Both the position numbers and the translations under genes were made by a program. Positions 2,937 through 20,742 of a stretch of 64,000 bases of DNA are shown piece by piece. Numbering within the stretch: position 1 is the stretch's first letter; the number at the start of each line of letters is the position of its first letter. The DNA lies in the IMG/VR virus record IMGVR_UViG_3300027887_000007, positions 1-64,000 of that record; one strand, 5' to 3'. The notes beneath the pieces are model-generated. The model had not been told where the DNA came from, did not search any database, and saw only the letters and a list, made by a program, of their open reading frames with translations. Origin of the DNA: a virus.

Positions 2937-3043
2937 TCCAATATCGGACGGGCGCGACTTCCCCGGTCGCGCCCCAATCCCGCAATGATCCTACCTGCAA
3001 AGGGTTGGCTCATTCCGCGATTGTCGCGGGGAAAGAGAGACCT

Positions 3044-3423: not shown

Positions 3424-3426
3424 CCT

Positions 3427-3618: not shown

Positions 3619-3689
3619 TTCCCGAGGGGGCGTCACGCTCACGGGCGCGGCGCCCTTCCGCGAATTCACGCGGGGAAAGCAGAGAGACT

Positions 3690-4184: not shown

Positions 4185-4255
4185 GGCATTGGGGAGCGGC
4201 GCGACTCCGGTCGCGCCCCTCTTCCGCGCCTTTCACGCGGGGAAAGCAGAGACCT

Positions 4256-4540: not shown

Positions 4541-4544
4541 GCCA

Positions 4545-5087: not shown

Positions 5088-5170
5088 GCGGGGGGCGAAT
5101 TGGCGCCCCTGTCCAATATCGGACGGGGCGCCATTCCGTTCTCATGCCGAGACGGGGAAAGAGAGACAGT

Positions 5171-5890
5171 ATGGAAGAGACCGAAACCTACGAACCGCCG
5201 TACAAAATCGAAGCAAGGAAAGCCAAGGCCGAACTGTCGGCGCTGGCTGCCGAAATCGCAACGCACTTGAATGCGCTGGACACCGAAGGCCCGGAGATGC
5301 TCCGAACGTGGGAGCTAAACGCGAGCGTGGGAAACTATGACCGCCTGGTAGAGATCCGCCACGGGGATAGCGACGAGCGCCTGTGGGTTAGCTTCTCCTA
5401 CCGTGAGACGGAGAAGATCCACATCGAAGGCCGATTCCCCACGTTCCGTGACGGGAACAAACCCTATGCCGCAGAGAAACCCTACAACGTAGCCGCCCCT
5501 TGGATGTCGATTGGCGCATCGAAGAGCAAAGGGGCAAAGAAGATCGCCGGGGATATCGTGAGGCGCCTGCTACCGGACTATCGGGCGCAACTGGCCAAGG
5601 TTCAGGAAGTAATCCGCGACACTCACGCCGCTTGGGACAAACGGAACGAGAAGGTACAGGCAATCTGCCGGTTGCTTGGCAAAGAGCAGGATAGGCGGGG
5701 CGACGAGTCCAAGGTCACCCCGAGCGTGATTTTGTTCTCTACAGACCACAGCCAGCGCATTGAAGTTGCGTTTGAGTATGACGGCGACATTCAGATTACT
5801 CTACGGACTAACCACTTCCCCACGGCGAGCATGATCGCAAGCGCAATGAAGGGACTAATCGACAGAATCAACGCAAGCGAGACCGTGTAG
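5171..5890 (+). CDS. early hypothetical protein
   Basis: Start after leader motif; long ORF. Confidence 0.75.
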   Translation: MEETETYEPPYKIEARKAKAELSALAAEIATHLNALDTEGPEMLRTWELNASVGNYDRLVEIRHGDSDERLWVSFSYRETEKIHIEGRFPTFRDGNKPYAAEKPYNVAAPWMSIGASKSKGAKKIAGDIVRRLLPDYRAQLAKVQEVIRDTHAAWDKRNEKVQAICRLLGKEQDRRGDESKVTPSVILFSTDHSQRIEVAFEYDGDIQITLRTNHFPTASMIASAMKGLIDRINASETV

Positions 5891-5956
5891 CGCATCGGCG
5901 GCGCGACTACGGTCGCGCCCCCGTTGCGCCGCATTGGGCGCGGAAAGGTAGAGAAC

Positions 5957-6307
5957 ATGAAAGGAAAAGGCGATTGGCGCGTCGAATTCGGGCCAGACTG
6001 GGACGTACCGCCGTGCATCGAAACCGCGCCCGAATTGGCGGATGACAGTTGGAAGAACGATACCTGTCCCTCATTTATATGGATAGGGGACTCCGACGAT
6101 GAGCCTAACCTGCGGCTCTTCTGCGACTACCCCACGGAAGAGGGCAGAGAAGAGACGGAATCATTCCGGTACTCCATTCACGGCTGCACTGATCCGCTTG
6201 ACGAACTCTCTTTTGAAACCCTGTGGGAAGGGAACGACCCGGAAGAGGCAGTGCGACAGATGAGAGAACTTGCGCGGATCTGGCATGAGAACGACCCCGT
6301 AGAGTAG
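5957..6307 (+). CDS. acidic early protein (DxSWxNDxCPSF motif)
   Basis: Motif recognised from phage hypothetical proteins; leader hairpin. Confidence 0.75.
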   Translation: MKGKGDWRVEFGPDWDVPPCIETAPELADDSWKNDTCPSFIWIGDSDDEPNLRLFCDYPTEEGREETESFRYSIHGCTDPLDELSFETLWEGNDPEEAVRQMRELARIWHENDPVE

Positions 6308-6324
6308 AGCGCAGCGGATTTTAC

Positions 6325-6354
6325 TTGACAACATTTTGTCGATCCCGGTATAAC
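6325..6354 (+). promoter_or_regulatory. sigma70-type early promoter P2
   Basis: TTGACA (6325-6330), 18 bp spacer, TATAAC (6349-6354); shares CTTGACAAC with P1. Confidence 0.8.
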
Positions 6355-6378
6355 TACTCTACGAAAGGAGAGACCGCT

Positions 6379-6582
6379 ATGGCAACAAAAGCGACAAGCC
6401 CTCAGCGAGCCGTGGAACTCCAGAAGAAAGCGAAGAAGCAAGTCTTCGCAATCATCAGGAAAACCCCGTTCGGATTGGGCGACTTGGATCAGGACAACTT
6501 CACCTTCAGTATGGACCGGATCACCAACGCGCTTTTTGAGGCGTGGACTCGCGGCTACGAAGAAGGAGTCAAGCGCTCGTGA
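6379..6582 (+). CDS. early hypothetical protein
   Basis: AAGGAGAGACC RBS. Confidence 0.7.
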   Translation: MATKATSPQRAVELQKKAKKQVFAIIRKTPFGLGDLDQDNFTFSMDRITNALFEAWTRGYEEGVKRS

Positions 6583-6815
6583 GAAACTTCAACGCGATCA
6601 TTGAAGTCAAAAACACGCGGTTCTGGAAGCACCCGCCGATGAGGGTCTCGGTCCAAGCCACTTCCTTCCCGGTCGCCATTGCGAAGGCCGGGAAGGAAGC
6701 TCGCAAGCTGATCCGCAAGCGAGAGAGGATAACCGAGATCAGGGTACACGTTATCGCTTCCAAAGTACCAGTCCAGCCAAAGACGGAGAAAGCCAATGGA
6801 AACTCCGTTGCGTAG
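6579..6815 (+). CDS. basic early hypothetical protein
   Basis: GTGA overlap with the upstream stop. Confidence 0.6.
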   Translation: MRNFNAIIEVKNTRFWKHPPMRVSVQATSFPVAIAKAGKEARKLIRKRERITEIRVHVIASKVPVQPKTEKANGNSVA

Positions 6816-7038
6816 CACAGTCAACAAGCCCGGGATTGAGAGGGCAATCCGCCGCGACTTCAGACAGAACAGCAGGATGCGCCCCCACTGGAAGGACTCC
6901 GAATTCTTCTACGAGCATGGCCAATGGTGGGCCGGTTGTAGGTATTGCGGAGCGCAGTGGAGCGTAGTCGATTGCGTCTCTCTCTCGGGCGAGGATTACT
7001 TTGACTTTGAACTCGTAACCAAAGGGGACACAGAATGA
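6796..7038 (+). CDS. early hypothetical protein
   Basis: GGAG RBS; FYEHGQWW and CRYC motifs. Confidence 0.65.
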   Translation: METPLRSTVNKPGIERAIRRDFRQNSRMRPHWKDSEFFYEHGQWWAGCRYCGAQWSVVDCVSLSGEDYFDFELVTKGDTE

Positions 7039-7442
7039 GCGACCACGTAGAGGTAGAGAAACGGCTCAACTTGGACGTTCGCTACCGGGAGATCGGCGGC
7101 GTAACCGAGTCCAGCCTGACCGCCGCTCGCAAGCTGATCCCCTACCCCCATCAGTACCCCTCGCACATCGTTCTGGTCCAAGACCGGAGCGGGTATTACA
7201 CCTATGTCCTCTTTCGGATCAGCTCCAGCCGTCCCTGTGAATCGGTAGTCGCATTGCAGTTTGACGGATTCAGTTGGGGATACTCGGGAGAGGGTCCGAG
7301 GGGACTTCAAGCGCTGTTTGAACTGTGCGACTACCTTCCGCCGGAATACCTACCGCCTGCCGGTAGTGACGGTGCGTGGATCTGCTTTCCAGACGGGCGC
7401 GTTCGCAGTATCGAAGAGTTCGCGTATTACCGCCTTGTTTGA
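7035..7442 (+). CDS. hypothetical protein, DUF6166-like motif
   Basis: GFSWGYSGEGPRGL motif; ATGA overlap. Confidence 0.6.
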   Translation: MSDHVEVEKRLNLDVRYREIGGVTESSLTAARKLIPYPHQYPSHIVLVQDRSGYYTYVLFRISSSRPCESVVALQFDGFSWGYSGEGPRGLQALFELCDYLPPEYLPPAGSDGAWICFPDGRVRSIEEFAYYRLV

Positions 7443-7513
7443 CATTGGAGCGGGCGCCGCGCCCCCCGGCGTGGCTTCCGTCCTTGTGTTACAGCAAGGG
7501 GAAAGAGAGACCT

Positions 7514-8251
7514 ATGGCAGCAGAACTGGCAGAACTGGAAGTTGAAGAGATACCGCCTGAGATCCTCGCAGAGCAGGAGAGGCGCCGCGCCAAGCTGAAG
7601 CTGGACTGGCCGATGGAATTGCCGTGGATGCGACAACTGCGGCCTACCAAGCTACAGGCGGCGCCCAAGCCACGCATCGAGAAACCCGAGAAGGCAATCG
7701 CCCGGATCGAAAAGGAGATCAGGACCGCCGTAGCCAAGCAACCGTTCAACAACTGCGACCGGCACATCGGCCAGAAGTTGGACGGCGGGAAGAAAACCGA
7801 TTACTACATGAAGGCGAGCGACGGGCATCGCGCCTTGCTCGTAGCTCAGACGAAGAAGTACAAACCCCCGGTTGTCCCCGAACAAAAACAGTGGCTTGTC
7901 AGTCACCTGCCGACCGATGAGAGCCGCATGGCGAGGATCGAAGATCCGCAATTCCACACCGCTCTGCGCCGGATGGAATGCGTGAACCAAGACGATCACA
8001 GGGTAGGCATCACGTTCTGGAAGGACTCACAGGAGATCGAACTCACATCGAAGAGTGAGGATATGGAAGGGACCGAAATCATCCCGGCGAAGGTCTACAA
8101 GAGCGGGTACATCGACGTTAGCGCAAGCTACCTGCTATCAGCCCTCGGGGTTTGGCCGGTTGACTTCCACATGGAGGGCAATCGAACGCCGATCACGATT
8201 GTTCCGGTGTGGCGCCCGTTTCTCTTCGTGTTCATGCCAATCGTCGTTTGA
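7514..8251 (+). CDS. protein with DNA polymerase III beta-clamp-like C-terminal half
   Basis: ASDGHRA (compare DnaN ATDGHRL), YLLSAL...P...FVFMPI terminus. Confidence 0.55.
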   Translation: MAAELAELEVEEIPPEILAEQERRRAKLKLDWPMELPWMRQLRPTKLQAAPKPRIEKPEKAIARIEKEIRTAVAKQPFNNCDRHIGQKLDGGKKTDYYMKASDGHRALLVAQTKKYKPPVVPEQKQWLVSHLPTDESRMARIEDPQFHTALRRMECVNQDDHRVGITFWKDSQEIELTSKSEDMEGTEIIPAKVYKSGYIDVSASYLLSALGVWPVDFHMEGNRTPITIVPVWRPFLFVFMPIVV

Positions 8252-8322
8252 GTGTCGATTCCGCGCCGTGTCCGATATTGGACATGGCGGGGAACCGCTA
8301 CTGAGGCGGGGAAAGGAGACCA

Positions 8323-8562
8323 ATGCCAGACAAGAGATTCATCGTCATCTCGTATGACGACGACCAGCAGCAGGCGTTCTACGACGGAGTAGAGGCCGAG
8401 AGCAATGCGGAAGCCCTGCTACTCATAGCCGAGGCTCGCCCATACGCTATCCCGGTCGATTGCTGCGACCTCGATACCTTCGCGTCAATCGCAACGGCTT
8501 GCTTCGTGGACAGGCGGGACATCCTCACCCGGGACTACAACCCGCTGGAGGTAAAGGAATGA
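8323..8562 (+). CDS. early hypothetical protein
   Basis: Leader motif. Confidence 0.7.
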   Translation: MPDKRFIVISYDDDQQQAFYDGVEAESNAEALLLIAEARPYAIPVDCCDLDTFASIATACFVDRRDILTRDYNPLEVKE

Positions 8563-8750
8563 GATGCCAATGCGCGGACCCCGGCTGCCCGGCCCACAAG
8601 GGGAAGAGCCGATGCGAGAAGAAGGGGACTCGCAGGAAACTGTGGCGCATCGACTATGCGGGATTCGATTCCTTCAAGTTCTGCCCCGCTTGTTTCGATG
8701 ACGCGATGGAAAGCGGATTCTTTACCGATCACGCGCCCAAGAGGTACTGA
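8559..8750 (+). CDS. Cys-rich small protein
   Basis: CQCADPGCPAH...C...CPAC; ATGA overlap. Confidence 0.65.
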   Translation: MRCQCADPGCPAHKGKSRCEKKGTRRKLWRIDYAGFDSFKFCPACFDDAMESGFFTDHAPKRY

Positions 8751-8752
8751 CA

Positions 8753-8986
8753 ATGCAAAAGCTACAGGCGGACGAACTCAGGGAGAACCTCATCGTGAAG
8801 GGGCGCAACGGTGACTTCCACCATGTAACCACCGAGGTAAGCATCCAAGAGGACGGCAAGGCGCGAGTGGGGATCTTCTCCCGGCGAAGGGGAGACTGTG
8901 ATGAGCCGCCCGTGTACTTCATCGGCCCTCAGGATATGTTGCTTGCCTACTTCAACGCGATCACAACGATGTTGCGAGACGAATAA
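8753..8986 (+). CDS. early hypothetical protein
   Basis: GAGG RBS; tightly packed. Confidence 0.6.
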   Translation: MQKLQADELRENLIVKGRNGDFHHVTTEVSIQEDGKARVGIFSRRRGDCDEPPVYFIGPQDMLLAYFNAITTMLRDE

Positions 8987-9003
8987 GACAGGAGAGACCA
9001 TAG

Positions 9004-9300
9004 ATGCCGAAAAAGAACAAACAGCTAGAAAGGATGATCGACCTCGCCGATGCGGCGTACCCGGACGGCTACGTGCGGATGTACCACGAAGACCGGAAGC
9101 GCAATAACGGCGACTCGATGGCGAGGTTTATCGCCTTGGAAATTGAGTCCCTCTGTGAGGGCGTAACCGTAAGCGACGGCTTGCTCATGGAAGACCTCAT
9201 CCGGGCTTTCACCACTGCCATCACCGAACTGGAGGCGGTCAGAAACGCCTTCGAGAACGCATCCCTCAACCTCAGTGTCACCTTGGGAGACAAAGCATGA
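9004..9300 (+). CDS. early hypothetical protein
   Basis: AGGAGAGACC RBS; AYPDG...GDSMARFI motif. Confidence 0.7.
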   Translation: MPKKNKQLERMIDLADAAYPDGYVRMYHEDRKRNNGDSMARFIALEIESLCEGVTVSDGLLMEDLIRAFTTAITELEAVRNAFENASLNLSVTLGDKA

Positions 9301-9671
9301 ATCTGAACCGAAGAGAGACCGCTACTGTCCTCGCTGCCCTGCGCCTCTTCCAGCAGAGACAGGTGAACTGCGACATGGAGCGGGTATTCCCCGAGTTTTT
9401 CAATGACGAGGGGCAAGTGCCTCTCGCGCAGTACGAGATCGACGACCTCTGCGAGCGGATCAACTTCGCGGAACCGTGCCTGCCCTTGACGGCGCCCACG
9501 GCGAAGGTTCTGGCCGAGGATCTGGACTACAACCTCAGGCACAACTCCCGCGACTTGCCGTACTCGTTCAAGCACCCGAGCGGGCTGCGCGAGATCCGCG
9601 AGGATATCCTCCACAAGCTGGAGAGGCTGCAAGGCGAGATCCGTTCGATTGTCCAGAGCGCCAAAGGCTAG
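9297..9671 (+). CDS. phage protein (RExATVLAALR...EIDDLCERIN family)
   Basis: Motif recognition; ATGA overlap. Confidence 0.75.
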   Translation: MNLNRRETATVLAALRLFQQRQVNCDMERVFPEFFNDEGQVPLAQYEIDDLCERINFAEPCLPLTAPTAKVLAEDLDYNLRHNSRDLPYSFKHPSGLREIREDILHKLERLQGEIRSIVQSAKG

Positions 9672-9858
9672 TGGCGATTCCGCGCCGCGACTCCGGTCGT
9701 GGCGGGGAACCGCTGCAAAGCGGGGCGTTCACGGAGTTTTGAGCCAAGCGTTTGAGGGACTCTGTCGCCGCCCACCGGCTAGGGGCATACAGAGAGCCTA
9801 GAAAAAGCTGCCGCCCCGCCGGGGGGCGATATCCCCGGCACTAACAAAGGAGAGACCA

Positions 9859-10359
9859 ATGCACAAACTCATTGCCGCAATAGTCCCCGCGAGCGACGAG
9901 AGGGATGCACTGATACACGCGGACGGCATCTTCTCGGAGCTGTGCGGAGACGGAAAGCCCTACGACTACCACTCCACCTTCGATGAGGGATGGGCGCGTG
10001 ACCGATGGGGCGAACTCTTTCCTGCAAAACCAGTGGGAGATCCGGTTGCCGATCAACTGGTATCCGAACTGATGGAGAGCAGGAAGAAGGAATTCATGCG
10101 GGGCATCGAAGCGCTCCGCGCCCGCATGGAAGCCAAGAACGACGAAGAGGTCTACATGGCCCTCTGCGACTACGGCGAATGGCCGAGCGTGGATTACGCC
10201 TTGCAGCTAATGTCGGGCGGGCATAATTGCTGTTACATCTACGGTCTGTCGGGCGCCGTCCTGAACCCTGTCGGCCTGAAGAGCCTGATCGAAGAGTACG
10301 AAGACCAAACCGAGAGCGGCGAGAAGCTGTGGGTTGTTCCCGCCGACGTTCACTACTAG
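9859..10359 (+). CDS. early hypothetical protein
   Basis: AAGGAGAGACC RBS; ends WVVPADVHY. Confidence 0.75.
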   Translation: MHKLIAAIVPASDERDALIHADGIFSELCGDGKPYDYHSTFDEGWARDRWGELFPAKPVGDPVADQLVSELMESRKKEFMRGIEALRARMEAKNDEEVYMALCDYGEWPSVDYALQLMSGGHNCCYIYGLSGAVLNPVGLKSLIEEYEDQTESGEKLWVVPADVHY

Positions 10360-10367
10360 GGGGAACC

Positions 10368-10604
10368 ATGACGATCAGTGTTTTGGTGATTGAAAACCGG
10401 GACGGATTTATCATCGAAGCATGGCGCAATGACAAGCTCGCCCAAGAGTCGCTCTTCGAGTATGTGAAGCAGGAGTGGCCCTCCGAGTTTCCAGACGAAG
10501 CCATGCCGGAAGACCCCGGAGTGGCGATTGACCAGTACTTTGAAGACAACTACGACGAGTTCTACTACCTAGAACTCGTCCCACTCAAAGGGGAAGAGGC
10601 ATGA
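10368..10604 (+). CDS. acidic early hypothetical protein
   Basis: GGGGGA RBS. Confidence 0.65.
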   Translation: MTISVLVIENRDGFIIEAWRNDKLAQESLFEYVKQEWPSEFPDEAMPEDPGVAIDQYFEDNYDEFYYLELVPLKGEEA

Positions 10605-10918
10605 AAGGCTACCAAGTCCAGCTCTATGCCGTAGTCCGCGTCAAGGTTCCCGTGCAAGCCGAGAGCCAAGAGGAAGCGATCACGGCAGCTATCGAGAAAG
10701 TGTGGGGTGACCGGCCCGACAGGGGCGCCCCTCCGCTCTACAAACTCTTCAACCGGGACTTCCCATGCCCCGAGGTTGTTTACACCGAATTCGCTGAGGA
10801 GGTTCTCCGCTACCTCGTGGACGAGGACGGTGACGAAGACTTCGAGAAGTCCGAATTCTACATCGACAACCCCACGCCTAACGCCTACACGCCGTACATC
10901 GTGGAACCCGAACGATGA
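10601..10918 (+). CDS. acidic early hypothetical protein
   Basis: VQAESQEEA motif; ATGA overlap. Confidence 0.7.
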   Translation: MKGYQVQLYAVVRVKVPVQAESQEEAITAAIEKVWGDRPDRGAPPLYKLFNRDFPCPEVVYTEFAEEVLRYLVDEDGDEDFEKSEFYIDNPTPNAYTPYIVEPER

Positions 10919-10984
10919 TCGAGGGGGCGGCGCATCTGCGGGTGTGCCGTCCTTCCGCTTATTGAGCGGGGAAAGAGAGAAACC

Positions 10985-11266
10985 ATGAGCGAGCAAAAAA
11001 CGATTGTCTGCCCACAATGCGGGGGAACCCGCATGAGGGTCGGACAGTTCACTTGGAACTACCAAGTGTGGCAGCAGGAGACCGAGGACGAGGAAGAGGA
11101 TTGGGGATACAGTAACTTCTGCGACTTCGCAGGCGACGACAAGATTGTGAGCGTGTACTGCGATACCTGCGAACGGCAAGGAAACCCCATCGACCTCACC
11201 GATCTCGCGGTCCAGTGCGGCCTCACTGTTTACGAAGAGGACAAGTTCCCGAGGAGGGTCGCATGA
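10985..11266 (+). CDS. Zn-ribbon acidic protein
   Basis: CPQC...CDTC; leader motif. Confidence 0.7.
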   Translation: MSEQKTIVCPQCGGTRMRVGQFTWNYQVWQQETEDEEEDWGYSNFCDFAGDDKIVSVYCDTCERQGNPIDLTDLAVQCGLTVYEEDKFPRRVA

Positions 11267-11643
11267 GTGAGGCATGGAAAACCAGACCGAAGGGCGATCC
11301 GACTCACTGGAAGCACCTACCGGGGAAGAAGGTCGAGCAACGGCTGGAGGAGCTGGGCTGGGATTGGGGCGCTACGGGTGGGAACTGTGACGCTTACTTC
11401 CTTTACACTTCATCGAAGCCACTGACCTACTGGATGCTGACAGACGCGGGAGGCGCCTCGATTCCTAAGACCGGGGGAGCGAACTGCACCCTCGGCCTTT
11501 ACGTTGACTGCGAGCAGATAACGTGGCTGGACGTTCCGCTGTGGGCCATTCTATCCAACACCTTGCTGTTCCTCGACGCCGGGCATGAGAAGCATGAAAG
11601 AGCAGAAGCGATTGTTCGAGACCGAAAAGCGCCGCGTTCCTAA
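11263..11643 (+). CDS. early hypothetical protein (TGGNCxA motif)
   Basis: GGAGG RBS; ATGA overlap. Confidence 0.7.
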   Translation: MSEAWKTRPKGDPTHWKHLPGKKVEQRLEELGWDWGATGGNCDAYFLYTSSKPLTYWMLTDAGGASIPKTGGANCTLGLYVDCEQITWLDVPLWAILSNTLLFLDAGHEKHERAEAIVRDRKAPRS

Positions 11644-11767
11644 GCGCTTCCGGTACATACCTCAACGAGCTGGTAAACCGAAGTACTCAACGGAGGACTA
11701 TGTCAGGGCTTTCAAGCGATGGGAGCAGGGACAAGAACCTAACCCGAACGGAGATACTGATTCGTAG
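11594..11767 (+). CDS. small hypothetical protein
   Basis: Short ORF overlapping the upstream gene. Confidence 0.4.
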   Translation: MKEQKRLFETEKRRVPKRFRYIPQRAGKPKYSTEDYVRAFKRWEQGQEPNPNGDTDS

Positions 11768-11841
11768 GTTCGTTACAGTTGCGACTTTGATTGCTTTCGT
11801 GACGATGCTTTACCTGTCTTGCGGACGAGTGCGTTGACCCC

Positions 11842-12459
11842 TCACTCATCGGGGTCGGGGATCTCATCACCTTCTCCGGCCCCGACCGCTTCCGCCTCTA
11901 CCTCAATCGGCGCTTCCTGTGGAGGGAGTTCTTGCCTAGCTGCCATCCGATCCATGACGCGGCGAAGGATGTCCTCGGAGCTGGTAAGTCCGTTGCTACC
12001 CGATCCGCCGGCGTTCACGGTGAGCGACTTCTGCTCCACGTTTACGTTGATGCCGCCTGGCCGCTCCTGCATCCCGACCGCCTCTCGGAACTCTTTGAGG
12101 GGTCCGACAGGGGAGACTCCAGAAGTCAGATATTGCTCGACAGGAATATCCAAGGCCGCGGACAAGAGGCGCCGGTACTTCTGGGACTCAGTCCTTTGCA
12201 GCAGTATCCGGTTCCGGTCGTTCTCTTGGGAAATGATCGTTCTGGTCGGAAGGCAGGATCGGACGTGCTGGATGTCCAGCTCGATCTCTTCCGGCGTTGC
12301 GGAGAGGAACTTAGCGATCTCTTCCTCCGTGTAGCCGGAGATGAAGTGGCTGTAGGCCTTGTTCGCCCGGTCGGCGTTGGGGTAGTCGGTGATGTTCGCC
12401 CGGCGAACCGAGGGGGCTGGCCCCATCTTGGTTATCGCCCAATCAAAGTTGTTCGCCAT
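11842..12459 (-). CDS. HTH protein, possible terminase small subunit
   Basis: N-terminal HTH-like GYTEEEIAKFLSATPEEIELDI, helical middle, INVNVEQ beta tail and acidic end; TACAAT box 6 nt before the ATG suggests a leaderless mRNA. Confidence 0.55.
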   Translation of the reverse strand: MANNFDWAITKMGPAPSVRRANITDYPNADRANKAYSHFISGYTEEEIAKFLSATPEEIELDIQHVRSCLPTRTIISQENDRNRILLQRTESQKYRRLLSAALDIPVEQYLTSGVSPVGPLKEFREAVGMQERPGGINVNVEQKSLTVNAGGSGSNGLTSSEDILRRVMDRMAARQELPPQEAPIEVEAEAVGAGEGDEIPDPDE

Positions 12460-12495
12460 AACCCGATTGTATGACAGAAGAGTAAAGGAGAGCAA

Positions 12496-13086
12496 ATGGG
12501 ACACATTTTTTTAACCGAGGAGCGGATCGCCATCATCATGAACCGCGCAAAGCAGAGCTGTGCCAGAGACTACGCCCTCCTGTCCGTTGCGGCCTGCACG
12601 GCGCTGCGGGCATCCGACCTCCTTCGGCTTCGCATAGCCGATGTCGTAGAGGAGGACGGCGGGGTCGTTCTGGCTCTTAGACTGAAAATCAAGAAAACTG
12701 GCAAGATGATCGAACGGCCGCTGCGGGAGGATGCCCGGGCAGCGCTCGCCGCTTACATCAAGGAACGGGACGACAAGAACCCCTACCTTTTTGTAAGCCT
12801 TCCCTCGGCCAACAAGCTGAGGCGGAAGCAACCACTCCACCGGGAGAGCTACTCGCTCATCATCAAAAAGTACCTGTCCGAGTTCTACCCGCACTCCGTA
12901 CTTCAAGGCTGCGCGACCCACACGCTGCGCCGATCAGTGGCCAAGTTGGTCTACAAGAAATCGGGAAGGATCGAGCCGGCGACTCTACTGCTTGGTCACA
13001 GCAGTCCAGCGAACACCATGCGGTACATCGACTCGGACGACATCAGGGACACTGCAAACGGAATCGTTGACAGCTTACAATGGTGA
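12496..13086 (+). CDS. tyrosine recombinase, catalytic domain only
   Basis: LRASD (R), KKT (K), HTLRR (HxxR), LLGH, TMRY (Y); 196 aa with no arm- or core-binding domain. Confidence 0.9.
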   Translation: MGHIFLTEERIAIIMNRAKQSCARDYALLSVAACTALRASDLLRLRIADVVEEDGGVVLALRLKIKKTGKMIERPLREDARAALAAYIKERDDKNPYLFVSLPSANKLRRKQPLHRESYSLIIKKYLSEFYPHSVLQGCATHTLRRSVAKLVYKKSGRIEPATLLLGHSSPANTMRYIDSDDIRDTANGIVDSLQW

Positions 13087-13095
13087 TAGTATAAC
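13067..13095 (+). promoter_or_regulatory. sigma70-type promoter of the tRNA
   Basis: TTGACA (13067-13072), 17 bp spacer, TATAAC (13090-13095). Confidence 0.8.
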
Positions 13096-13120
13096 CGGTC
13101 TGTGAGCCCAACAACTTATG

Positions 13121-13195
13121 TGCGGGGTAGAGCAGAGGTAGCTCGTCAGGCTCATAACCTGAAGGCCGGGGGTTCAAGTCCCTCCCCCGCCACCA
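13121..13195 (+). tRNA. initiator tRNA-fMet (CAT)
   Basis: Full cloverleaf, CAT anticodon, 1x72 mismatch (T.C), A11-T24 pair, GTTCAA T-loop, encoded CCA. Confidence 0.95.
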
Positions 13196-13237
13196 AGTTT
13201 TGCTTGACACCGAATCGTCACGGTGCGAAGATGGCGA

Positions 13238-13302
13238 TGCCTAGCAACGTACATGGTCTCTCTTGGGGCGCGACTTGATCGGGGTCGCGCCCCTTCCTTT
13301 TT
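13238..13302 (+). ncRNA. candidate sRNA antisense to the early-gene leader motif
   Basis: CATGGTCTCTCTT (13252-13264) is the reverse complement of AAGAGAGACCATG; TTGACA at 13204 upstream, terminator-like hairpin downstream. Confidence 0.45.
13265..13302 (+). terminator. intrinsic terminator-like hairpin
   Basis: GGGGCGCGAC/GTCGCGCCCC 10-bp stem followed by TTCCTTTTT. Confidence 0.6.
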
Positions 13303-13309
13303 CCCCTCT

Positions 13310-13927
13310 ATGACAGAGACCGTCTCCGTAGTGATCGGGACGTTCGGCGATCGGGACTTCTGGTGCCATCTCGCCCGAAGAGCCTTCGCGTCCGCCGAGG
13401 CTCAGGACCCAAAGCCCGCCGAAATCACGATGGTTCACGAGGAGTCCCTCAGCCTTGCGAGAAACAGGGGCGCCCGACTGTCGAGCGGCGACTGGCTCTG
13501 CTTCCTCGATGCCGACGACGAGCTGGAGCCCGGCTACATCGCAGAGATGCTGAAGGCCGAGGGAGACCTCCGATACCCATCCGTCAGGTACATCCCGTGG
13601 GACAGCTCGAAGCCCCCGGAGTCGTACACCCCCACCCAGATGACGGTGAGACCCCTCCTGACCGGTAACTACATGGTCATCGGAACCCTCGTCAGAAGGG
13701 AGCAATTCCTCAGAGTGGGGGGGTTCGATGAGTGGCCCGCCTACGAGGATTGGGCCCTCTGGATCAAGTGCTGGATCGACGGCGCCAAGGCGATGCCCGC
13801 AGAAAAGGCCGTTTATCGGGCTTATAGGCGTCCGGACGGGAGGAACGTGGTCAAGAACCCAGCCGTTATCTTCTACCAGATCAAGAATGCGTACCTCGGT
13901 CTGGCCAAAGAGAAAGGCCTCGCATGA
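13310..13927 (+). CDS. glycosyltransferase family 2
   Basis: VSVVI, ARNRGA, WLCFLDADD, GGFDE, EDWALW. Confidence 0.9.
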   Translation: MTETVSVVIGTFGDRDFWCHLARRAFASAEAQDPKPAEITMVHEESLSLARNRGARLSSGDWLCFLDADDELEPGYIAEMLKAEGDLRYPSVRYIPWDSSKPPESYTPTQMTVRPLLTGNYMVIGTLVRREQFLRVGGFDEWPAYEDWALWIKCWIDGAKAMPAEKAVYRAYRRPDGRNVVKNPAVIFYQIKNAYLGLAKEKGLA

Positions 13928-14589
13928 GCCATGAAGTGTGCCTGATCTGCTTCACAGACGGCCGCGGCCAGTACCTCAGACGCACCCTCGAATCCTTCAC
14001 CGCAATGGTGAAGGGTCCCATCACCTGCAGGTTCCTACACAACGACGCCGGGGTCGAACCCTACAAGCAGTACCTCACTCAGGAGTGGGGGAAGCACTTC
14101 GATGTGATGTTTCACCACACGAACCGCATGGGGTTCTGTTGGTCGGTCAAGGATGCTTGGAGCAAGATCCCCCTGAAGTGCGACTACGTCTTCCACCTCG
14201 AGGACGACTTCGTGTTCAACCGCGAACTCGACCTGTCAGAGATGATCGACGTGATGGAGGAGAACCCGCATCTTATCCAGATCGCCCTGTTGCGGCAGCC
14301 CTGGAACTCCGATGAGCAAGCCGCCGGCGGGATCTGGCAGCAAAGGCCGCAGGACTACACGCAGAAGAGCAAGTGGTTTGAGCATAGGATTGTTTTCACG
14401 ACAAACCCGTGCCTCTACCGAAGGTCACTGACAAACCGCGACTGGCCACTGGTTGAACACTGCGAGGGTATCTTCACCCATCAACTCTTCAATAGCGATC
14501 CAAACCTGAGATCCGCCTTCTGGGGGCAGATGGGAGACCCGCCATACGTCGAACACATCGGATACGGCAGGGTCGGAACGGGATACTGA
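13924..14589 (+). CDS. GT-A fold glycosyltransferase
   Basis: GRGQYLRRTLESF, YVFHLEDDF, FTTNPCL, VEHIG. Confidence 0.85.
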   Translation: MSHEVCLICFTDGRGQYLRRTLESFTAMVKGPITCRFLHNDAGVEPYKQYLTQEWGKHFDVMFHHTNRMGFCWSVKDAWSKIPLKCDYVFHLEDDFVFNRELDLSEMIDVMEENPHLIQIALLRQPWNSDEQAAGGIWQQRPQDYTQKSKWFEHRIVFTTNPCLYRRSLTNRDWPLVEHCEGIFTHQLFNSDPNLRSAFWGQMGDPPYVEHIGYGRVGTGY

Positions 14590-15581
14590 TGAGCGAGAAC
14601 AGTTACACATCTACCGGCGTGAAGTTGGCTTACCACCCGGCTGCGATAGCGGATCTGCACCGCGGCCTGAACCACCCGATCGTCCTCCACATCATGCCGA
14701 CCGAGATTTGCAACCTAGAGTGCGTCTTCTGTTCGGTCGCGCAGCGGGGAGCCGAGGGTCGATGGCTTCCAGACCTGACGATGACCCAGATCAACTCCGT
14801 CGTTACCGCATTGAGCCCACTGGGACTGAAGGCTGTGATTTTAAGCGGAGGAGGGGATCCCACGCTCTACAAAGAGATCAACGCCCTGATCTACTACTTG
14901 TCCGCGATGGGGCTAGAGATCGGGATGATTACCAATGGCATCCTGCTCCGCGACCGGATCTGGGAAGAGAGATTGCGGCTTCTGAAGTGGATCCGGATCT
15001 CAGCGAACACCCTAGACTATCGCAGAAGGATCGACATCCCCCCGCTACCCGACAGCGTGACCTTAGGCTTCAGCTACATCTGGAATCCACTGACGACGGG
15101 AGAAATCATCGGGAACATCCGCCAGCTTTGCGCTGCCCATCCTGTGCGGTACGTCAGGGTCCTATCTGACTGCCAGCTCGACTCCCCTGAGCTGGACAAG
15201 GCGCAGGACAAGCTGGCCAAGATCGTCGCAACGCTGGGGCCTCCGTTCTTTCACCAAAACAAGAGACACGCCATGCCCGCGGAGTGCCACTTGGGAAGGG
15301 TACACCCGGTACTCTACACTGACGGGTACATTTACCCTTGCGATTCTGTCGTACTGAACTCCCCGAAAGAGGACAAGAAGTTTCACTCAGACTATGCGAT
15401 CTGTCGCTGGGACGGTGTCAGGGAGTTCTACCGGTCACCCATCGCCGGCTCGCTTGTGGACACCCGAAAATGCCCCCATTGCGTATTCGCCGCACAAAAC
15501 GGACTGCTAACGTCAATCGTAAACCAAAAAACAAACCTCACGGAGCCGTCCGAAAAGGTCGAACACGTAAACTTCGTGTAG
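14589..15581 (+). CDS. radical SAM protein with C-terminal Cys cluster (SPASM/twitch-like)
   Basis: CNLECVFC, SGGGDPT, ITNG, C..DGYIYPC..CPHC. Confidence 0.9.
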   Translation: MSENSYTSTGVKLAYHPAAIADLHRGLNHPIVLHIMPTEICNLECVFCSVAQRGAEGRWLPDLTMTQINSVVTALSPLGLKAVILSGGGDPTLYKEINALIYYLSAMGLEIGMITNGILLRDRIWEERLRLLKWIRISANTLDYRRRIDIPPLPDSVTLGFSYIWNPLTTGEIIGNIRQLCAAHPVRYVRVLSDCQLDSPELDKAQDKLAKIVATLGPPFFHQNKRHAMPAECHLGRVHPVLYTDGYIYPCDSVVLNSPKEDKKFHSDYAICRWDGVREFYRSPIAGSLVDTRKCPHCVFAAQNGLLTSIVNQKTNLTEPSEKVEHVNFV

Positions 15582-16216
15582 AGCTCTACGACGAGGAGTA
15601 TTTCGAGCGAGGCATCGCAACCGGTAAGTCGCTTTACGTCAACTACCACTGGATGCCGGAGCTGACGATCCGCATGGCTCACCACATGACGCGGATCCTG
15701 CCGATTCGCCTTGGCGAGACGGTTCTCGACTACGGCTGCGCCAAGGGATACCTCGTTAAGGCGCTGCGCCTCCTCGACATCAACGCCTTCGGGTGCGATA
15801 TCTCGAGCTACGCAATCAAGAACGTCGACGATTCGGTCAAGAGATACTGCGAGAAGATCCCCCCAGAGCTTCCTCCAGTCCCGTTCCCGGGCCTTCGGTT
15901 CAGTTGGATCGTTACCAAAGACGTTCTCGAACACATGTCGGAGCGGGACATCCACTGGTTCCTCAGCTCGACCGCTCACCGCTGCGACAGCATGTTCCAT
16001 GTGATCCCGCTTGGGGACGGCTGCAAATTCACCGTGCCGGAGTACGAGCGTGACACCACCCACGTCACCGCATGGCCCGCCGACAAGTGGATAAGCAAGT
16101 TCCGCGCTTACGGATGGAACAACATCACCTACGGGACCGAGGTCATGGGCATCAAGGAACTCTGGACCAGTCTCTACGAGACCGGTAACGGTTTCTTCTG
16201 GCTGCGACGGAGGTAG
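15470..16216 (+). CDS. class I SAM-dependent methyltransferase (start uncertain)
   Basis: VLDYGCAKG, GCDIS, DVLEH; protein-like sequence begins near 15578. Confidence 0.85.
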   Translation: MPPLRIRRTKRTANVNRKPKNKPHGAVRKGRTRKLRVELYDEEYFERGIATGKSLYVNYHWMPELTIRMAHHMTRILPIRLGETVLDYGCAKGYLVKALRLLDINAFGCDISSYAIKNVDDSVKRYCEKIPPELPPVPFPGLRFSWIVTKDVLEHMSERDIHWFLSSTAHRCDSMFHVIPLGDGCKFTVPEYERDTTHVTAWPADKWISKFRAYGWNNITYGTEVMGIKELWTSLYETGNGFFWLRRR

Positions 16217-16218
16217 CC

Positions 16219-16755
16219 GTGGAGCAGTGCGTGGCTGAAGCCGCCAAGCTGTGGGGCCTAGTCGGTGTGCCGGAGCTCGAATGGCTCGCCAACGAAGCCC
16301 GGACGATGGAATCCATTGTCGAGATCGGGTCCATGCACGGCCAAAGCGCCTACGTCCTGCTGTCGCTTTGCAAGGGACCGGTGTACTGTATCGACCCGTG
16401 GGACGACCGGAACAGAAAGCTCTACCTCAACCCGCCCGGGCGCCAGCTCCGTCAGTTCATGAAGAACTGCGGTCACTTCCATAACCTCAGGGCGATCAAG
16501 GGTCGGTCGCCGGCCGCCGGGCGGCAGGTAGTAGAGCCGATGGTGGACATGGTATGGATCGACGGGGACCACAGCTACGAGGCGGTGCGGGACGACATTC
16601 AGTACTGGCGACCCAGAACCGCCAATCTTATCTGCGGTCACGATTACAGCAACGCTCAGTGTCCGGGGGTCAAGAAAGCCGTGGACGAGTACTTTGGGGG
16701 GACGGCTCAGACGGCCCTCTACCGGGACCCGATCTGGTACGTGAGGATCTTGTGA
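16219..16755 (+). CDS. Methyltransf_24-type methyltransferase
   Basis: VEIGSMHGQS, CIDPW, IDGDHSYE, ICGHDY, GVKKAVDE. Confidence 0.9.
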   Translation: MEQCVAEAAKLWGLVGVPELEWLANEARTMESIVEIGSMHGQSAYVLLSLCKGPVYCIDPWDDRNRKLYLNPPGRQLRQFMKNCGHFHNLRAIKGRSPAAGRQVVEPMVDMVWIDGDHSYEAVRDDIQYWRPRTANLICGHDYSNAQCPGVKKAVDEYFGGTAQTALYRDPIWYVRIL

Positions 16756-17438
16756 CAGATAAAAAGGAACCACTGAAGTTTCGGATGGTCACAGTCACAC
16801 CGTCTCTGCGGCCGTCCATGTGGGCCAACGTCGCTGCGAACATCGTCAGGCAAATCCGCAAACCAGACCTTTCAATCCTCGTCCGACACAAAACCAAAGT
16901 CGAACCTTCGCTTTGGAAGGAGGAGCTCGCCGCCGCGGGCATCCCCACAATAGTCCTCGATGCCAAGGACTGGTTCCGCTTGGGAGATGTACTTGGGATG
17001 GGCTTCGCCGAGGCCGCGAGAAACATGGACATCGGCCTGATCTGCACGATCGACGACGACGACTACTACGGCAACTGCTACCTCGCCGAGCTGGATGACT
17101 TCTTCCGCGAACACCAAGATGCGGCAATCATCGGAAAGCAGATCTACCGCTGCCGCTGGCTGGACAACTCCCACGCCCCGAGGCTGATGTGTCCCCGGTG
17201 GACCCCAAACCCCGAGCAATGTGCCTCCGTAGCCGGCCCGACAATATCAGTAAACGTGAAGTTGTGGAGAGAGAACCCAAACTTCAGACACCCGATACAC
17301 GACCCTGTCGCAGACGTTGGGATCATCATGGCTGCCCACGCCTGCAACCTGAAGGTCTACACAACAACCCCCGACCACTTCTGGCTGCAGCGCTACGGCC
17401 CGGAACACGGTCACGGATGGGTGTGGGACGGAGAGTAA
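16752..17438 (+). CDS. GT-A fold glycosyltransferase
   Basis: GTGA overlap start; IDDDDYY, IIGK, VAGPT. Confidence 0.75.
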   Translation: MTDKKEPLKFRMVTVTPSLRPSMWANVAANIVRQIRKPDLSILVRHKTKVEPSLWKEELAAAGIPTIVLDAKDWFRLGDVLGMGFAEAARNMDIGLICTIDDDDYYGNCYLAELDDFFREHQDAAIIGKQIYRCRWLDNSHAPRLMCPRWTPNPEQCASVAGPTISVNVKLWRENPNFRHPIHDPVADVGIIMAAHACNLKVYTTTPDHFWLQRYGPEHGHGWVWDGE

Positions 17439-18290
17439 ATGACGAGAATCTGGGGCGTTACGATGGTCGCCAACGAGGAGGACATTATCGGCTACACCCT
17501 CAGCCACCTGTTCTCACAGGGAGTGGATGGTGTGGTTGTTTGCCTTCACAACTGCACCGACAGAACCGAGGAGATCGTTCGAGACATGGCCCTAAGGCGA
17601 ACGATCGAGATCCTTCTGGAGCCCAAGAGCGCGTTCTATCAGGGAAGAAAGTTGACCGAACTCGCCAACTACGCGCATAGACTTGGGGCAGAGTGGGTTA
17701 TCCCGTTCGACGCCGACGAGCTCTGGTACCCTCTGGACCCCAAGCTAAGCCTCTATGGGTGTCTGGGTGCCGCTACACCGATCATGCAGAAGAGAGAACG
17801 CCGCGTTGTGGCCGCTACCATGCTCAATCACTTCACGACCAACGCCGACCAGGCCGAGCCAAATCCGTACAAGAGGCTCAAGTTCCGTCATGTCAACCCT
17901 AACCCGCTTCAGAAGTGCTGCGTCCTGTGGTCTCCGACGCTTGCCGTGGACGAGGGAAACCACCGGATCCTGATCGAGTCAGACTACAGTACGCCGTCTA
18001 GGGTTAACCCTGTAGATGGAGAGGAGATCGGGATCGGCATCAGGCACTTCTCGGCGCGGTCGGAGGATGTCTGGATCAGGAAGTCGATACTGGCCGGCAA
18101 CCGGCTCGCTCTCACAAAGCTCGATCCGTCCATCGGGGCTCATGTCAGGCAGTACGCCGGGACCGCCGCTGAGTATGGAGAGGAAGCGCTGCGGGAACAC
18201 TACCGCAAATGGTTCGTCTTCGACGTGTCACAAAAGCCCTACGAAGGCCCGATGGTCTACGACCCGGCACCTTACACCGGAGACCTATGA
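17439..18290 (+). CDS. glycosyltransferase family 2 (Glyco_tranf_2_4-like)
   Basis: MVANEEDII, CTDRT, WVIPFDADE, GNH, IRHF. Confidence 0.85.
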   Translation: MTRIWGVTMVANEEDIIGYTLSHLFSQGVDGVVVCLHNCTDRTEEIVRDMALRRTIEILLEPKSAFYQGRKLTELANYAHRLGAEWVIPFDADELWYPLDPKLSLYGCLGAATPIMQKRERRVVAATMLNHFTTNADQAEPNPYKRLKFRHVNPNPLQKCCVLWSPTLAVDEGNHRILIESDYSTPSRVNPVDGEEIGIGIRHFSARSEDVWIRKSILAGNRLALTKLDPSIGAHVRQYAGTAAEYGEEALREHYRKWFVFDVSQKPYEGPMVYDPAPYTGDL

Positions 18291-18946
18291 GCTACATCGT
18301 CGCCATCCCCAACCGCTTCCCCGAGGTCATCCAGCCGCTCATCGACTCAATCCAGAAGTACGAGAAACAGACGGAAGTCTACATCGTTGCAGATGGACAC
18401 AATCGGGGCTACGGCTACGAAGTCCTACACTACAAAAGCCCCAACTTCGTCTTCTCCGCGGCATCCAATATCGGAATCATGAAGGGCGTAAAGAACGGGA
18501 AGGATGTGTTTCTCATCAACGACGACATCCGGCTGATCGAGTTCGACACGTTCGGCCGGCTCTACGAGATCATGCAGGTTCGTCCCAAGCTGGGCATCTT
18601 GAGCCCACTCATCAAGGGATGCGTCGGCCAGGCCGCGCAGCACTGGTACAAGCGACACCTCTACCACCGATCGGAATGCCCCGTCCTGTACCTCAAGGGA
18701 GGTTCCCCGTTCTGCTTCCCGTTCGTCCTCTTCCGGAAGGAAATGGTCCTCGAGACTGGACCAATGGATGAGTCGTTCGTCGGATACGGCGGCGACGACA
18801 TCGCATACTCGCGCAAGGTCCGTAAGATGGGATGGATGACCGGCGTCACACCTCTAGTCACCGTCGAACATGGCGACGGAAGCCCCGGAATGGGGGAGGC
18901 CAGAGGGCGATCTTGGTCGGTCAGCTACAAAAAGCGGTACGGATAA
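18287..18946 (+). CDS. glycosyltransferase family 2
   Basis: FSAASNIG, LINDDI, MDESFVGYGGDD. Confidence 0.85.
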   Translation: MSYIVAIPNRFPEVIQPLIDSIQKYEKQTEVYIVADGHNRGYGYEVLHYKSPNFVFSAASNIGIMKGVKNGKDVFLINDDIRLIEFDTFGRLYEIMQVRPKLGILSPLIKGCVGQAAQHWYKRHLYHRSECPVLYLKGGSPFCFPFVLFRKEMVLETGPMDESFVGYGGDDIAYSRKVRKMGWMTGVTPLVTVEHGDGSPGMGEARGRSWSVSYKKRYG

Positions 18947-19006
18947 ACTCCACGAGCCGGGAAAACTCGCCGTAAACCGCCCTAGAATATTTTGTATTAC
19001 AATCAC

Positions 19007-19405
19007 CTAGGTCATGGGCTGTATTTCGAGGTCAAAACTCTCGTTGGGGCCTTGTACGCGAAATACGTGAAGCTCGGCTACCTGACGGTCGTTTTTGATC
19101 CTTCCGCTCTTCTCGATGCCGTCTAAAACTGCTTTTACGCCATCCACGTCGCCCTTCCCGCGCATCCAGATCGTCACACTGACCGGTCCTGTGGTGTCTT
19201 CCTCGAGGATCCGAAGCGTGTAGAACCCAACCACCTGCTCGAACTGCTTCACCTCCGAGCTGGGGCCGATCCAGTAGAGGGGTCCTCGGATGTACTTCTT
19301 CAGGCCGGTGACGTACTGCTGGATGGTCCCCCAGAACGTCCGGTTGAAGTGGATCTCGTAGGTATTGGCCTTGTTGGGGATGCCGCAGGGAATGGTGTGT
19401 CTCAT
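19007..19405 (-). CDS. rusA: RusA-like Holliday junction resolvase
   Basis: DVDGVKAVLDG...NDRQV catalytic pattern. Confidence 0.75.
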   Translation of the reverse strand: MRHTIPCGIPNKANTYEIHFNRTFWGTIQQYVTGLKKYIRGPLYWIGPSSEVKQFEQVVGFYTLRILEEDTTGPVSVTIWMRGKGDVDGVKAVLDGIEKSGRIKNDRQVAELHVFRVQGPNESFDLEIQPMT

Positions 19406-20742
19406 TTGTCGTACCACCTGTCGTCGCTTGGTTGCTCTGGCCTCTGGTCCTTGAATCTGGAGTACGCGGGCTCGAATCCCATCTCGATCGTCCCTTGGGG
19501 CCCGTTCCGCTGCTTGGCGAGAATCACCTCGGCCGGTAGAACCTCGTCAATCGCCGCATCCATCTGCTCCCGGTAGAGCATGAGGACCACGTCGGCATCC
19601 TGCTCGATCTGGCCCGACTGCCTCAGGTCGGACAGCTGCGGGCGCTTGTCCCGCCGCTTCTCAGACGCCCGGGACAGCTGAGCTGCGGAGATCACCGCGG
19701 CGTTCATGCTCTTGGCCATAGACTTCAAGGCCATCGAGATCGAGGATACCTTCTCGACGTCGGGCGCCTTCAGCAGGTGGTGTGGCGGGTAAACCAGCTG
19801 CAGGTAGTCGACCATGATGACGTTGATTTCCCGGTTCAGCCGGCGGATCCGCGATCGCATGTCCGCTACGGTCACAGTAGCCGAGTCGTCGATCCAGATC
19901 GGGTAGGTTGAAAGCTTGCTGGCGGCGTTCCCAAGCCTTACCCAGTCTTCCCGGGACATGAAACCCGTAACCATCCTGCTCAGCTTGACCTCTGCCATCG
20001 AGGAAAGCATCCGGTTTACCAGTTCCTTCTCGCTCATCTCCAGCGAGAAGATCACATGGCTGACCCCGGCAGCCGCCGACCGGGTAGCCATACCGAGGAG
20101 CAGGGAAGTTTTCCCGTGTCCGGGCCGACCAGCGACAATGGCGAGGTTCTTGCGGTTGATTCCGGTTGGAATCAGGGCGTCTATCCCGCCGAACCCCGTC
20201 TTGAATCCGTCGGCAGCCTTCTTCTCCTCGACCCTCTCCAGCTCGTTATAGGTCTCTTGGACAATGTCCGATATCGGACGTGGGCCCAGCTTCCGGTCCA
20301 GACGGGCCAGAGCTGAGTCCATCTCGCTGAAAGCATCTCCGACTATGTCTGAGAACTTTTCGTCCTGAGCCGCACACCGGACCATGAGCTCTTGAGCAAC
20401 CTGCAGACCGACCCTGAGACCGTACTTCTCCCGTAAAATAGCAATGTACTGAGGAGAAAGGACTTCCTTGAAATGAGGGACGGAATCGGTCAGTCCAGTT
20501 AAATAAAGCGGTCCTCCTACCTTGTCCAGCTGCCCAGCCGCCCGGAGCTCCTCCATAACGCTCAGAAGATCAGGCTGTCTCTCTGATTCGACGATCTTTA
20601 TGAGCGTCTTCCAGATGATCCTGTTGGCTTCGGAGTAGAAGTCTTTGTCCTCGAGGTCGGCATCCAGCCGGCCCGAGGTCATCACGTAGCCGAGGATCAC
20701 CTTCTCGATTTCTACGGCATTGGGGATCTCGATGTCGGCCAT
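19402..20742 (-). CDS. dnaB: replicative DNA helicase
   Basis: GRPGHGKT, FSLEMS, VDYLQL, AQLSR, DLRQSGQIEQDAD, KQRNGP; N-terminal DnaB domain. Confidence 0.95.
   Translation of the reverse strand: MADIEIPNAVEIEKVILGYVMTSGRLDADLEDKDFYSEANRIIWKTLIKIVESERQPDLLSVMEELRAAGQLDKVGGPLYLTGLTDSVPHFKEVLSPQYIAILREKYGLRVGLQVAQELMVRCAAQDEKFSDIVGDAFSEMDSALARLDRKLGPRPISDIVQETYNELERVEEKKAADGFKTGFGGIDALIPTGINRKNLAIVAGRPGHGKTSLLLGMATRSAAAGVSHVIFSLEMSEKELVNRMLSSMAEVKLSRMVTGFMSREDWVRLGNAASKLSTYPIWIDDSATVTVADMRSRIRRLNREINVIMVDYLQLVYPPHHLLKAPDVEKVSSISMALKSMAKSMNAAVISAAQLSRASEKRRDKRPQLSDLRQSGQIEQDADVVLMLYREQMDAAIDEVLPAEVILAKQRNGPQGTIEMGFEPAYSRFKDQRPEQPSDDRWYDK

Follow-up and report, generated by a model that had tools for sequence, protein, structure and literature searches.

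Just downstream of a tRNA gene, this phage genome carries a compact unit (13204-13302, + strand) in which a predicted promoter, an unpaired seed and a terminator hairpin follow one another. The unit is conserved as a self-contained element in related phages, and its seed is complementary to a tag found at the start codons of the early genes. From comparison of the genomes, we put the chances at about even that the unit is a small RNA (sRNA) gene whose seed pairs with the early-leader tags and lowers early translation. An earlier note, made from the sequence of this stretch, had suggested such an RNA; the observation on which it was built is confirmed, and its interpretation is partly supported, in that the comparison backs a putative RNA gene with a matched seed.

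The source record is that of an uncultured virus of 110,207 bp, and the window, meaning the whole stretch of DNA that was analysed, is its first 64 kb. From 1 to 19 kb the genome is read on the + strand and holds many small ORFans together with a RadC-like gene and a sliding-clamp-like gene; the remainder beyond about 19 kb is mostly on the minus strand. A tyrosine recombinase (integrase) gene (12496-13086) lies upstream of the tRNA gene, and its 196-aa product, which consists of the catalytic domain only, is equal in length in all relatives. Its closest cellular homologues, at about 48% identity, come from Acidobacteriota, Terriglobia and one Planctomycetota MAG, which may give a weak hint as to the host; in the Acidobacteriota and Planctomycetota MAGs with integrase relatives, neither the unit nor the tag was found. 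The tRNA gene itself (13121-13195, + strand; anticodon CAT, called as tRNA-Met) is served by a sigma-70-like promoter (TTGACA, 17 nt, TATAAC; 13067-13095, + strand), and consensus sigma-70 promoters are rare in this genome. The tRNA alone was matched by megablast against cultured phages, and it was also the sole match in an Rfam scan of positions 1-20000 with E values up to 1, which returned no family for the unit.

On its other side the unit is followed by the first glycosyltransferase gene (13310-13927, + strand) of an eight-gene operon. This gene has no Shine-Dalgarno sequence, its start codon lies 8 nt past the T tract that forms the terminator tail and follows a pyrimidine-only tract (13294-13312), and the operon seems to depend on read-through past the terminator. 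An N-terminal extension of the glycosyltransferase from the ATG at 13253, in-frame here and in one relative (G004), was considered and rejected: it has no ribosome site, and it meets a stop in G001-G003.

The candidate sRNA promoter (13204-13232, + strand) combines a TTGACA box (13204-13209) with a weak -10 box, GAAGAT (13227-13232), that matches TATAAT at three of six positions; the 17-nt spacer between the boxes ends in TG (13224-13225). The 5′ part of the RNA (13239-13264) is predicted to be unpaired and ends in the conserved seed, CAT plus GGTCTCTCTT (13252-13264), which is followed by a terminator hairpin of 10 G-C-rich pairs plus two U-G pairs (13265-13293) and by a U-rich tail, TTCCTTTTT (13294-13302). 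Each of these elements is where the earlier note had placed it. In the predicted fold (-26 kcal/mol for the unit) the seed is unpaired, and the hairpin is the top terminator-like site within 1-20 kb. No terminator was found between the tRNA promoter or tRNA and the small-RNA unit, which, together with the weak -10 box, makes co-transcription with the tRNA likely in this genome.

The 8-bp stem GGCGCGAC/GTCGCGCC of the hairpin is repeated at 2663, 2951, 4198 and 5900. The earlier claim that the stem is shared with the early region is thus correct here, but the sharing is specific to this genome, as the stem differs in the relatives. The four early intergenic hairpins that have the identical stem (2663-2682, 2951-2973, 4198-4217 and 5900-5919) carry tetraloop-like loops (TACG, TCCG), and the stem common to them and the sRNA terminator points to an exchange of cassettes or to a common signal for processing or termination.

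Relatives were collected through the integrase: a single query yielded two IMG/VR genomes, and an alignment of integrase homologues yielded several more of 102-113 kb. The glycosyltransferase protein as query found no relatives, and pattern scans of IMG/VR and a metagenome collection keyed to the hairpin loop returned only the two already-known relatives and chance matches; the loop proved less conserved than at first apparent. The unit, defined as a -35/-10 pair, an unpaired seed, an adjoining terminator hairpin and a U-rich tail, is present in six genomes, namely this one and five relatives of about 105-110 kb, which amount to four or five distinct sequence versions of it. Neighbouring proteins are about 50-57% identical among these genomes. 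All six have a predicted promoter made up of a -35 box of the form TTGAC(A/G), a 17-18 nt spacer and a -10 box, and the -10 boxes of the relatives (TAGAAT, TACAAT, TAAATT and TATCCT) are better than the one here.

Four of the relatives (G001, G002, G003 and G005) carry the unit downstream of the recombinase. G001 and G002 share one arrangement (TTGACA, 18 nt, TAGAAT, 10 nt, GGTTTCTCTC, hairpin, U-rich tail), from which G003 departs in its -10 box, TACAAT; G005 has TTGACG, 17 nt, TAAATT, a longer 5′ part, the GGTTTCTCTC seed and another hairpin. The copy in G004 is diverged: its promoter is TTGACA, 17 nt, TATCCT, it has an additional 5′ hairpin, its seed is GGGTTTCTCTCTT, and its hairpin sequence is wholly different. 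It was missed by the strict pattern and by covariance model R1 and was recovered via a plain seed search. Seed search and covariance model found no unit in G006, G007 or G008.

The surroundings of the unit vary from genome to genome. The tRNA is not recognised by ARAGORN in G001, an insert of about 290 nt separates the tRNA from the unit in G002, and no tRNA lies nearby in G004, where the unit directly precedes a homologous glycosyltransferase gene. (In G004, a long non-coding stretch after the recombinase gene, L045 8830-9600, replaces the tRNA and holds loosely repeated units of the type ..agtgagcc.. and ..agtatca..) The 3′ neighbour is a convergent minus-strand gene in G001, G002 and G003 and a different small ORF in G005. 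Because the unit lies 290 nt off the tRNA in G002 and does without a tRNA in G004, it stands alone and is not a mere tRNA trailer; judging from these contexts, the conserved object is the promoter, seed and terminator together, and neither a tRNA trailer nor a particular neighbour. The earlier note had left the choice between an RNA of about 65 nt and the tRNA trailer: a putative small transcription unit is indeed conserved in six genomes, but the trailer is not the conserved feature.

Among these genomes, whose GC content spans 44-58%, conservation within the unit is highest in the seed, which is predicted to be unpaired in every version; its distance is 0-2 nt to the hairpin and 10-55 nt to the -10 box. 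The hairpin sequence varies freely. In the five alignable versions, its stem is paired in 85% of cells versus 53-62% with slid partners, three pairs are changed on both sides, and the covariation score is 0.33 versus 0.08-0.26. This pattern of conservation bears on another account of the locus, namely that it is a mere promoter plus terminator, where the integrase/tRNA unit ends and the next one starts, and that the mirrored tag is functionless or is maintained by gene conversion with the leader cassettes. The hairpin is a good intrinsic terminator, as this account would have it, and the stem shared with four other intergenic hairpins points to PeSL-like cassette exchange (PMC2839356). We nevertheless consider it unlikely, as it is the seed that has been held constant and the hairpin sequence that has been free to change; the stretch shared with the leaders is too short for gene conversion (10-13 nt) and its flanks are unlike; and a promoter with a terminator 20-70 nt downstream of it is understandable chiefly as an RNA gene.

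The seed's 10-mer, GGTCTCTCTT, is perfectly complementary to AAGAGAGACC; the latter is found on the + strand at 1956, 3033, 7503 and 9311 and on the minus strand at 13255 only, that is, in the unit's own complement. The first three of these sites had been pointed out in the earlier note, and 9311 is a fourth. The motif stands directly before three early start codons, those of the RadC-like gene (tag plus ATG, 1956-1969), a 58-aa ORFan (3033-3046) and the sliding-clamp-like gene (7503-7516), and just inside a fourth early gene, where it occupies codons 5-8 of the ORF starting at 9297 (9311-9320), all on the + strand. When one mismatch is allowed, AAGAGAGACC has 16 sites compared with 6.7 expected, a count reached by none of 100 shuffles. 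A 10-mer match in one genome alone could be an accident of the search space, an explanation that its conservation in the relatives excludes.

The tag belongs to a leader cassette that precedes about a dozen early genes and consists of a GC hairpin that varies and has GGGG at its end, followed by AAAG..GAGAC(C) or a similar sequence, 0-3 bases and the ATG. Beyond the exact copies, the cassettes span 936-10987 on the + strand, with ATGs at 961, 1333, 2721, 3690, 4256, 5171, 5957, 6379, 8323, 9004, 9859 and 10985. In this genome the tag is GGGGAAAGAGAGACC-like, and it is specific to the early region: it is found in 14 of 37 early ORFs versus 6 of 128 late ORFs, the late genes preferring GGAGG/AGGAG. 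A separate observation concerns a near-palindromic motif of 13-14 bp, (G)TCCAATATCGGAC, which is present in seven copies (1914, 2937, 5112, 8270, 18464, 20266 and 54320) versus about 1 expected; the copy at 20266 is a perfect palindrome, and four copies lie just upstream of early leader cassettes. The motif resembles an operator bound by a dimeric regulator or an element of the early promoters.

Two readings dispense with an sRNA. According to the first, which the earlier note had offered as its alternative, the unit is an inverted leader cassette driving a 26-aa minus-strand ORF (13254-13174) that is antisense to the 3′ end of the tRNA; on that strand the order is in fact hairpin, AAGAGAGACC, ATG. 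We find this barely credible and have rejected the ORF as a gene, because the relatives have neither a start codon beside the motif nor a comparable ORF (reading from the first ATG downstream gives just 5 codons in G001 and about 19 in G003), the ORF lies antisense to a tRNA, and the minus strand has no conserved promoter. Moreover, the unit's complement reads CCCC where true leaders read GGGGAAAG, so that only the tag of roughly 10 nt is mirrored and not a whole inverted leader. According to the second, a phage regulator binds the tag as double-stranded DNA, so that it serves as operator or roadblock at the early genes and, inverted, at the unit's promoter. That the motif is on both strands and lies downstream of the promoter in the unit would fit, but at the genes the tag always has one orientation and a fixed distance of 0-8 nt from the start codon, and in the unit its distance is fixed relative to the hairpin (0-2 nt) and variable relative to the -10 box (10-55 nt). 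The tag also lacks dyad symmetry, and a separate near-palindrome, GTCCAATATCGGAC, makes a better operator candidate, so we regard a DNA site as very improbable.

The seed and the leader tag change together at the level of the phage family. In this genome, the seed GGTCTCTC goes along with leaders most of which read GAGAGACC before the ATG; in G001-G005, the seed GGTTTCTCTC goes along with leaders that read GAGAGAAACC, these leaders being GAGAGAAAC(C) or close variants. In each comparison the mean duplex energy favours the genome's own seed: the leaders of this genome give -15.5 kcal/mol with their own seed versus -12.4 and -13.1 with foreign seeds, and relative to the seed of this genome the relatives' own seeds are stronger on their own leaders in G001 (-13.9 versus -12.3), G002 (-15.6 versus -13.3), G003 (-13.4 versus -12.2) and G005 (-17.3 versus -11.9 kcal/mol). 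The 11-mer leader core GGAAAGAGAGA is present in all five genomes whose unit fits the strict pattern and in none of the four other genomes. G004 has the variant tag AAGGAGAGAAACC together with its variant unit; in G007, the leaders have GGAAAGGAGA, an ordinary strong ribosome site, and the unit was not found; and in two relatives without the tag no unit was found either. The earlier note had held that its reading would fail if the seed were not conserved where the leaders are, and had looked to covariation of seed and leader in related phages. On both counts the genomes agree with it, as the seed is kept wherever the leaders are (in variant form in G004) and differs along with its own genome's tag, in few lineages. 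The co-variation comprises four or five versions and comes down in essence to a single C versus UU difference together with presence or absence, the latter following relatedness.

Whether the early leaders are preferred over other sites depends on the length of the query. When the 16 nt before the hairpin are searched against both strands of the genome, about 37,000 windows in all, the 29 best non-self sites include eight early start regions, and a ninth match falls in the first codons of the ORF at 9297. With the whole 5′ part (24-36 nt) as query, the results are noisy and the duplex energies of the leaders are unexceptional genome-wide; its top matches include three that extend past the core, two of them at the start of the 71-aa gene at 2721 and at the 3′ end of the gene ending at 5890. 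Beyond the window, a third extended match lies at genome positions 99,620-99,662 (minus strand), before a gene near 99,640, where about 19 bases of the sRNA 5′ part, including the core tag, are matched just upstream of an AGGAGG ribosome site; this is possibly an additional target outside the early block. Co-folding of the 64-nt RNA with 15 early leaders is predicted to gain -10 to -27 kcal/mol, in most cases exceeding the gain from 60 composition-matched shuffles of the 5′ part (z scores of -1.3 to -5.1), with the target mostly unpaired. For most leaders, no more than 6-10 contiguous nt match the seed.

In the relatives, an adenylosuccinate-synthetase-like gene that is far from the early block bears the early-leader tag in its start region, and there the tag match is 13-17 nt long and reaches the RNA's 5′ end. 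The gene (Pfam PF00709, E 2e-56) is at L010 7011-8276 on the minus strand, which corresponds to G001 47011-48276, and occurs also in G002, G003 (L072) and G005 (L073); none was found in this genome. The adenylosuccinate-synthetase family includes the phage PurZ enzymes of 2-aminoadenine DNA.

A CU-rich seed of this kind would pair with many purine-rich ribosome sites. In another reading, the sRNA is aimed mainly at host mRNAs, or at host ribosome-binding sites generally, with the match to the phage leaders being secondary. Many bacterial sRNAs have comparable anti-Shine-Dalgarno-type seeds, and host genes are frequent targets of the phage and prophage sRNAs described to date. We think host targets improbable as the main ones, since the seed follows the private phage tag (GAGACC versus GAAACC) and not the canonical GGAGG of the late genes.

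The remaining account places the function in cis: promoter, seed and leaky terminator would form the 5′ untranslated region of the glycosyltransferase operon, a leader or attenuator whose seed, by pairing with codons 2-4, would hide the start of the first gene unless the seed is titrated, for example by abundant early leaders. The gene's lack of a Shine-Dalgarno sequence is in keeping with this, as is the position of the hairpin end: here and in G004, 8-16 nt separate it from the start codon of a glycosyltransferase gene, the two genes being homologous. In a read-through transcript, codons 2-4 (AGAGACC, 13315-13321) can pair with the seed, and in both the MFE and the centroid structures of 13239-13345, AUGGUCUCU is base-paired to AGAGACCGU, with the terminator enclosed between them. 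The codons fit the seed of their own genome, with GAG-ACC here and GAA-ACC in G004. However, this pairing is not predicted in G004, and the Glu-Thr codons are also fixed by protein homology. The other four genomes have different downstream neighbours, so that it is the unit and not the neighbour that is conserved. Taken as the whole explanation, a cis-acting leader seems unlikely to us, although a cis role could coexist with one in trans.

We return to the trans-acting sRNA as the preferred reading. Host RNA polymerase would start at the sigma-70-type promoter and stop at the hairpin and U tract, making a non-coding RNA of about 64 nt that, in this genome, probably also arises as the 3′ part of a tRNA precursor. 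The unpaired pyrimidine-rich seed, UGGUCUCUCUU, directly 5′ of the terminator, would pair with the purine-rich AAGAGAGACC(N)AUG, predicted to be unpaired between the 5′ hairpin and the start codon, in about a dozen early mRNAs. We infer transcription and pairing in vivo from these features, and the repressive direction from the position of the pairing at about -12 to +3. Covering the ribosome-binding region in this way should lessen the translation, and perhaps the mRNA stability, of early genes, and would spare late genes with ordinary GGAGG sites.

A more general idea, which we advance tentatively, is that of a tag-and-antitag system, in which a private early tag and one mirror RNA that accumulates and switches off the whole early class in translation have co-evolved. 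Post-transcriptional shut-off of early genes in lytic and large temperate phages is known from a few model phages, where it works via proteins; a conserved phage RNA that recognises a tag would, if it exists, be a simple and portable temporal switch. It would also account for the leader bases that are conserved outside the Shine-Dalgarno core, and orthogonal tag/antitag pairs might be used for synthetic control of translation.

Among bacterial regulators, the nearest in design are the RybB/OmrA-type sRNAs, which are trans-acting repressors of multiple targets built from a seed plus a terminator. Like them, the unit has, by prediction, its own promoter, a seed that is short, conserved and single-stranded (with co-variation from few lineages), a U-tailed Rho-independent terminator, and many targets at or near the ribosome-binding site. 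It differs in being encoded by a phage, in having the phage's own early genes as its targets via a shared tag, and in the placement of the seed, which lies against the terminator and is not at the extreme 5′ end in all versions.

Phages have antisense RNAs of their own. C4 RNA pairs with the icd ribosome site and is processed by RNase P. The C4 antisense RNA of P1 and P7 blocks ant expression (PMC8198154), and it resembles the proposed RNA in that a phage antisense RNA blocks initiation of phage translation through short complementarity, with a link to tRNA-like processing. Unlike our candidate, C4 controls a single operon downstream of it, uses loops for pairing and has its role in lysogenic immunity; the unit has no Rfam C4 match, and its putative targets are dispersed 2-12 kb upstream rather than downstream in the same operon. 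T4 RegA, a translational repressor (reviewed in PMC3014915), likewise brings about a class-wide cut in early translation by occupying initiation regions, but it is a protein, to which the proposed mirror RNA would be the RNA-based equivalent.

With regard to location, tRNA 3′ external spacers can act as sRNAs, as 3′ETS-leuZ does, and an RNA of that class is made only within a tRNA precursor; our unit has its own predicted promoter and copies that are free of a tRNA. Small RNAs beside phage tRNA genes include PAK_P3 sRNA2 and the T4 band C and D RNAs, whose functions are unknown (PMC4933390). They share the unit's location, but the unit has retained a predicted promoter of its own and persists where the tRNA is missing. 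The PeSL cassettes of T4-type phages (Arbiol et al., 2010; PMC2839356) are like this locus in that intergenic cassettes, equipped with sigma-70-like promoters and terminator stem-loops, recur in an early region rich in ORFans. The likeness is divided here, as the unit has the promoter and terminator stem-loop and the repeated cassettes are without sigma-70 promoters, and PeSLs have not been described with an antisense seed.

The closest parallel to the tags is found in the start-associated sequences (SAS) and extended SAS of Cluster K mycobacteriophages (Pope et al., 2011; PMC3203893), whose role is still ill-defined (PMC11373665). Both are private, asymmetric motifs at the ribosome-binding position that are conserved beyond the Shine-Dalgarno bases, limited to non-structural genes, usually followed by ATG and often preceded by an inverted repeat. 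The SAS motif, GGGATAGGAGCCC, is unrelated to the tag and was not found here, and the phages and their hosts are unrelated as well, so we see an analogy and not a homology; the position of the tag, the upstream inverted repeat and the one reverse copy are what the two have in common. K1 phages have a single reverse-oriented SAS per genome with no gene attached (PMC3203893), for which no RNA has been proposed, whereas here the reverse copy is part of a promoter-seed-terminator unit conserved across genomes. In Adephagia, the reverse SAS (L080 38683-38695; about 58,682-58,694 of the record) lies between genes 92 and 93, which are 430 bp apart, and is enclosed by a 9-bp inverted repeat (GTCGACCAG ... 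CTGGTCGAC); a + strand RNA would show the anti-SAS in its loop. By analogy, this arrangement invites being read likewise as an antitag RNA. If tags and antitags do work together as we suggest, the same principle may explain the orphan reverse SAS of the Cluster K phages and would give a testable answer to the question of what start-associated sequences do, which has been open since 2011.
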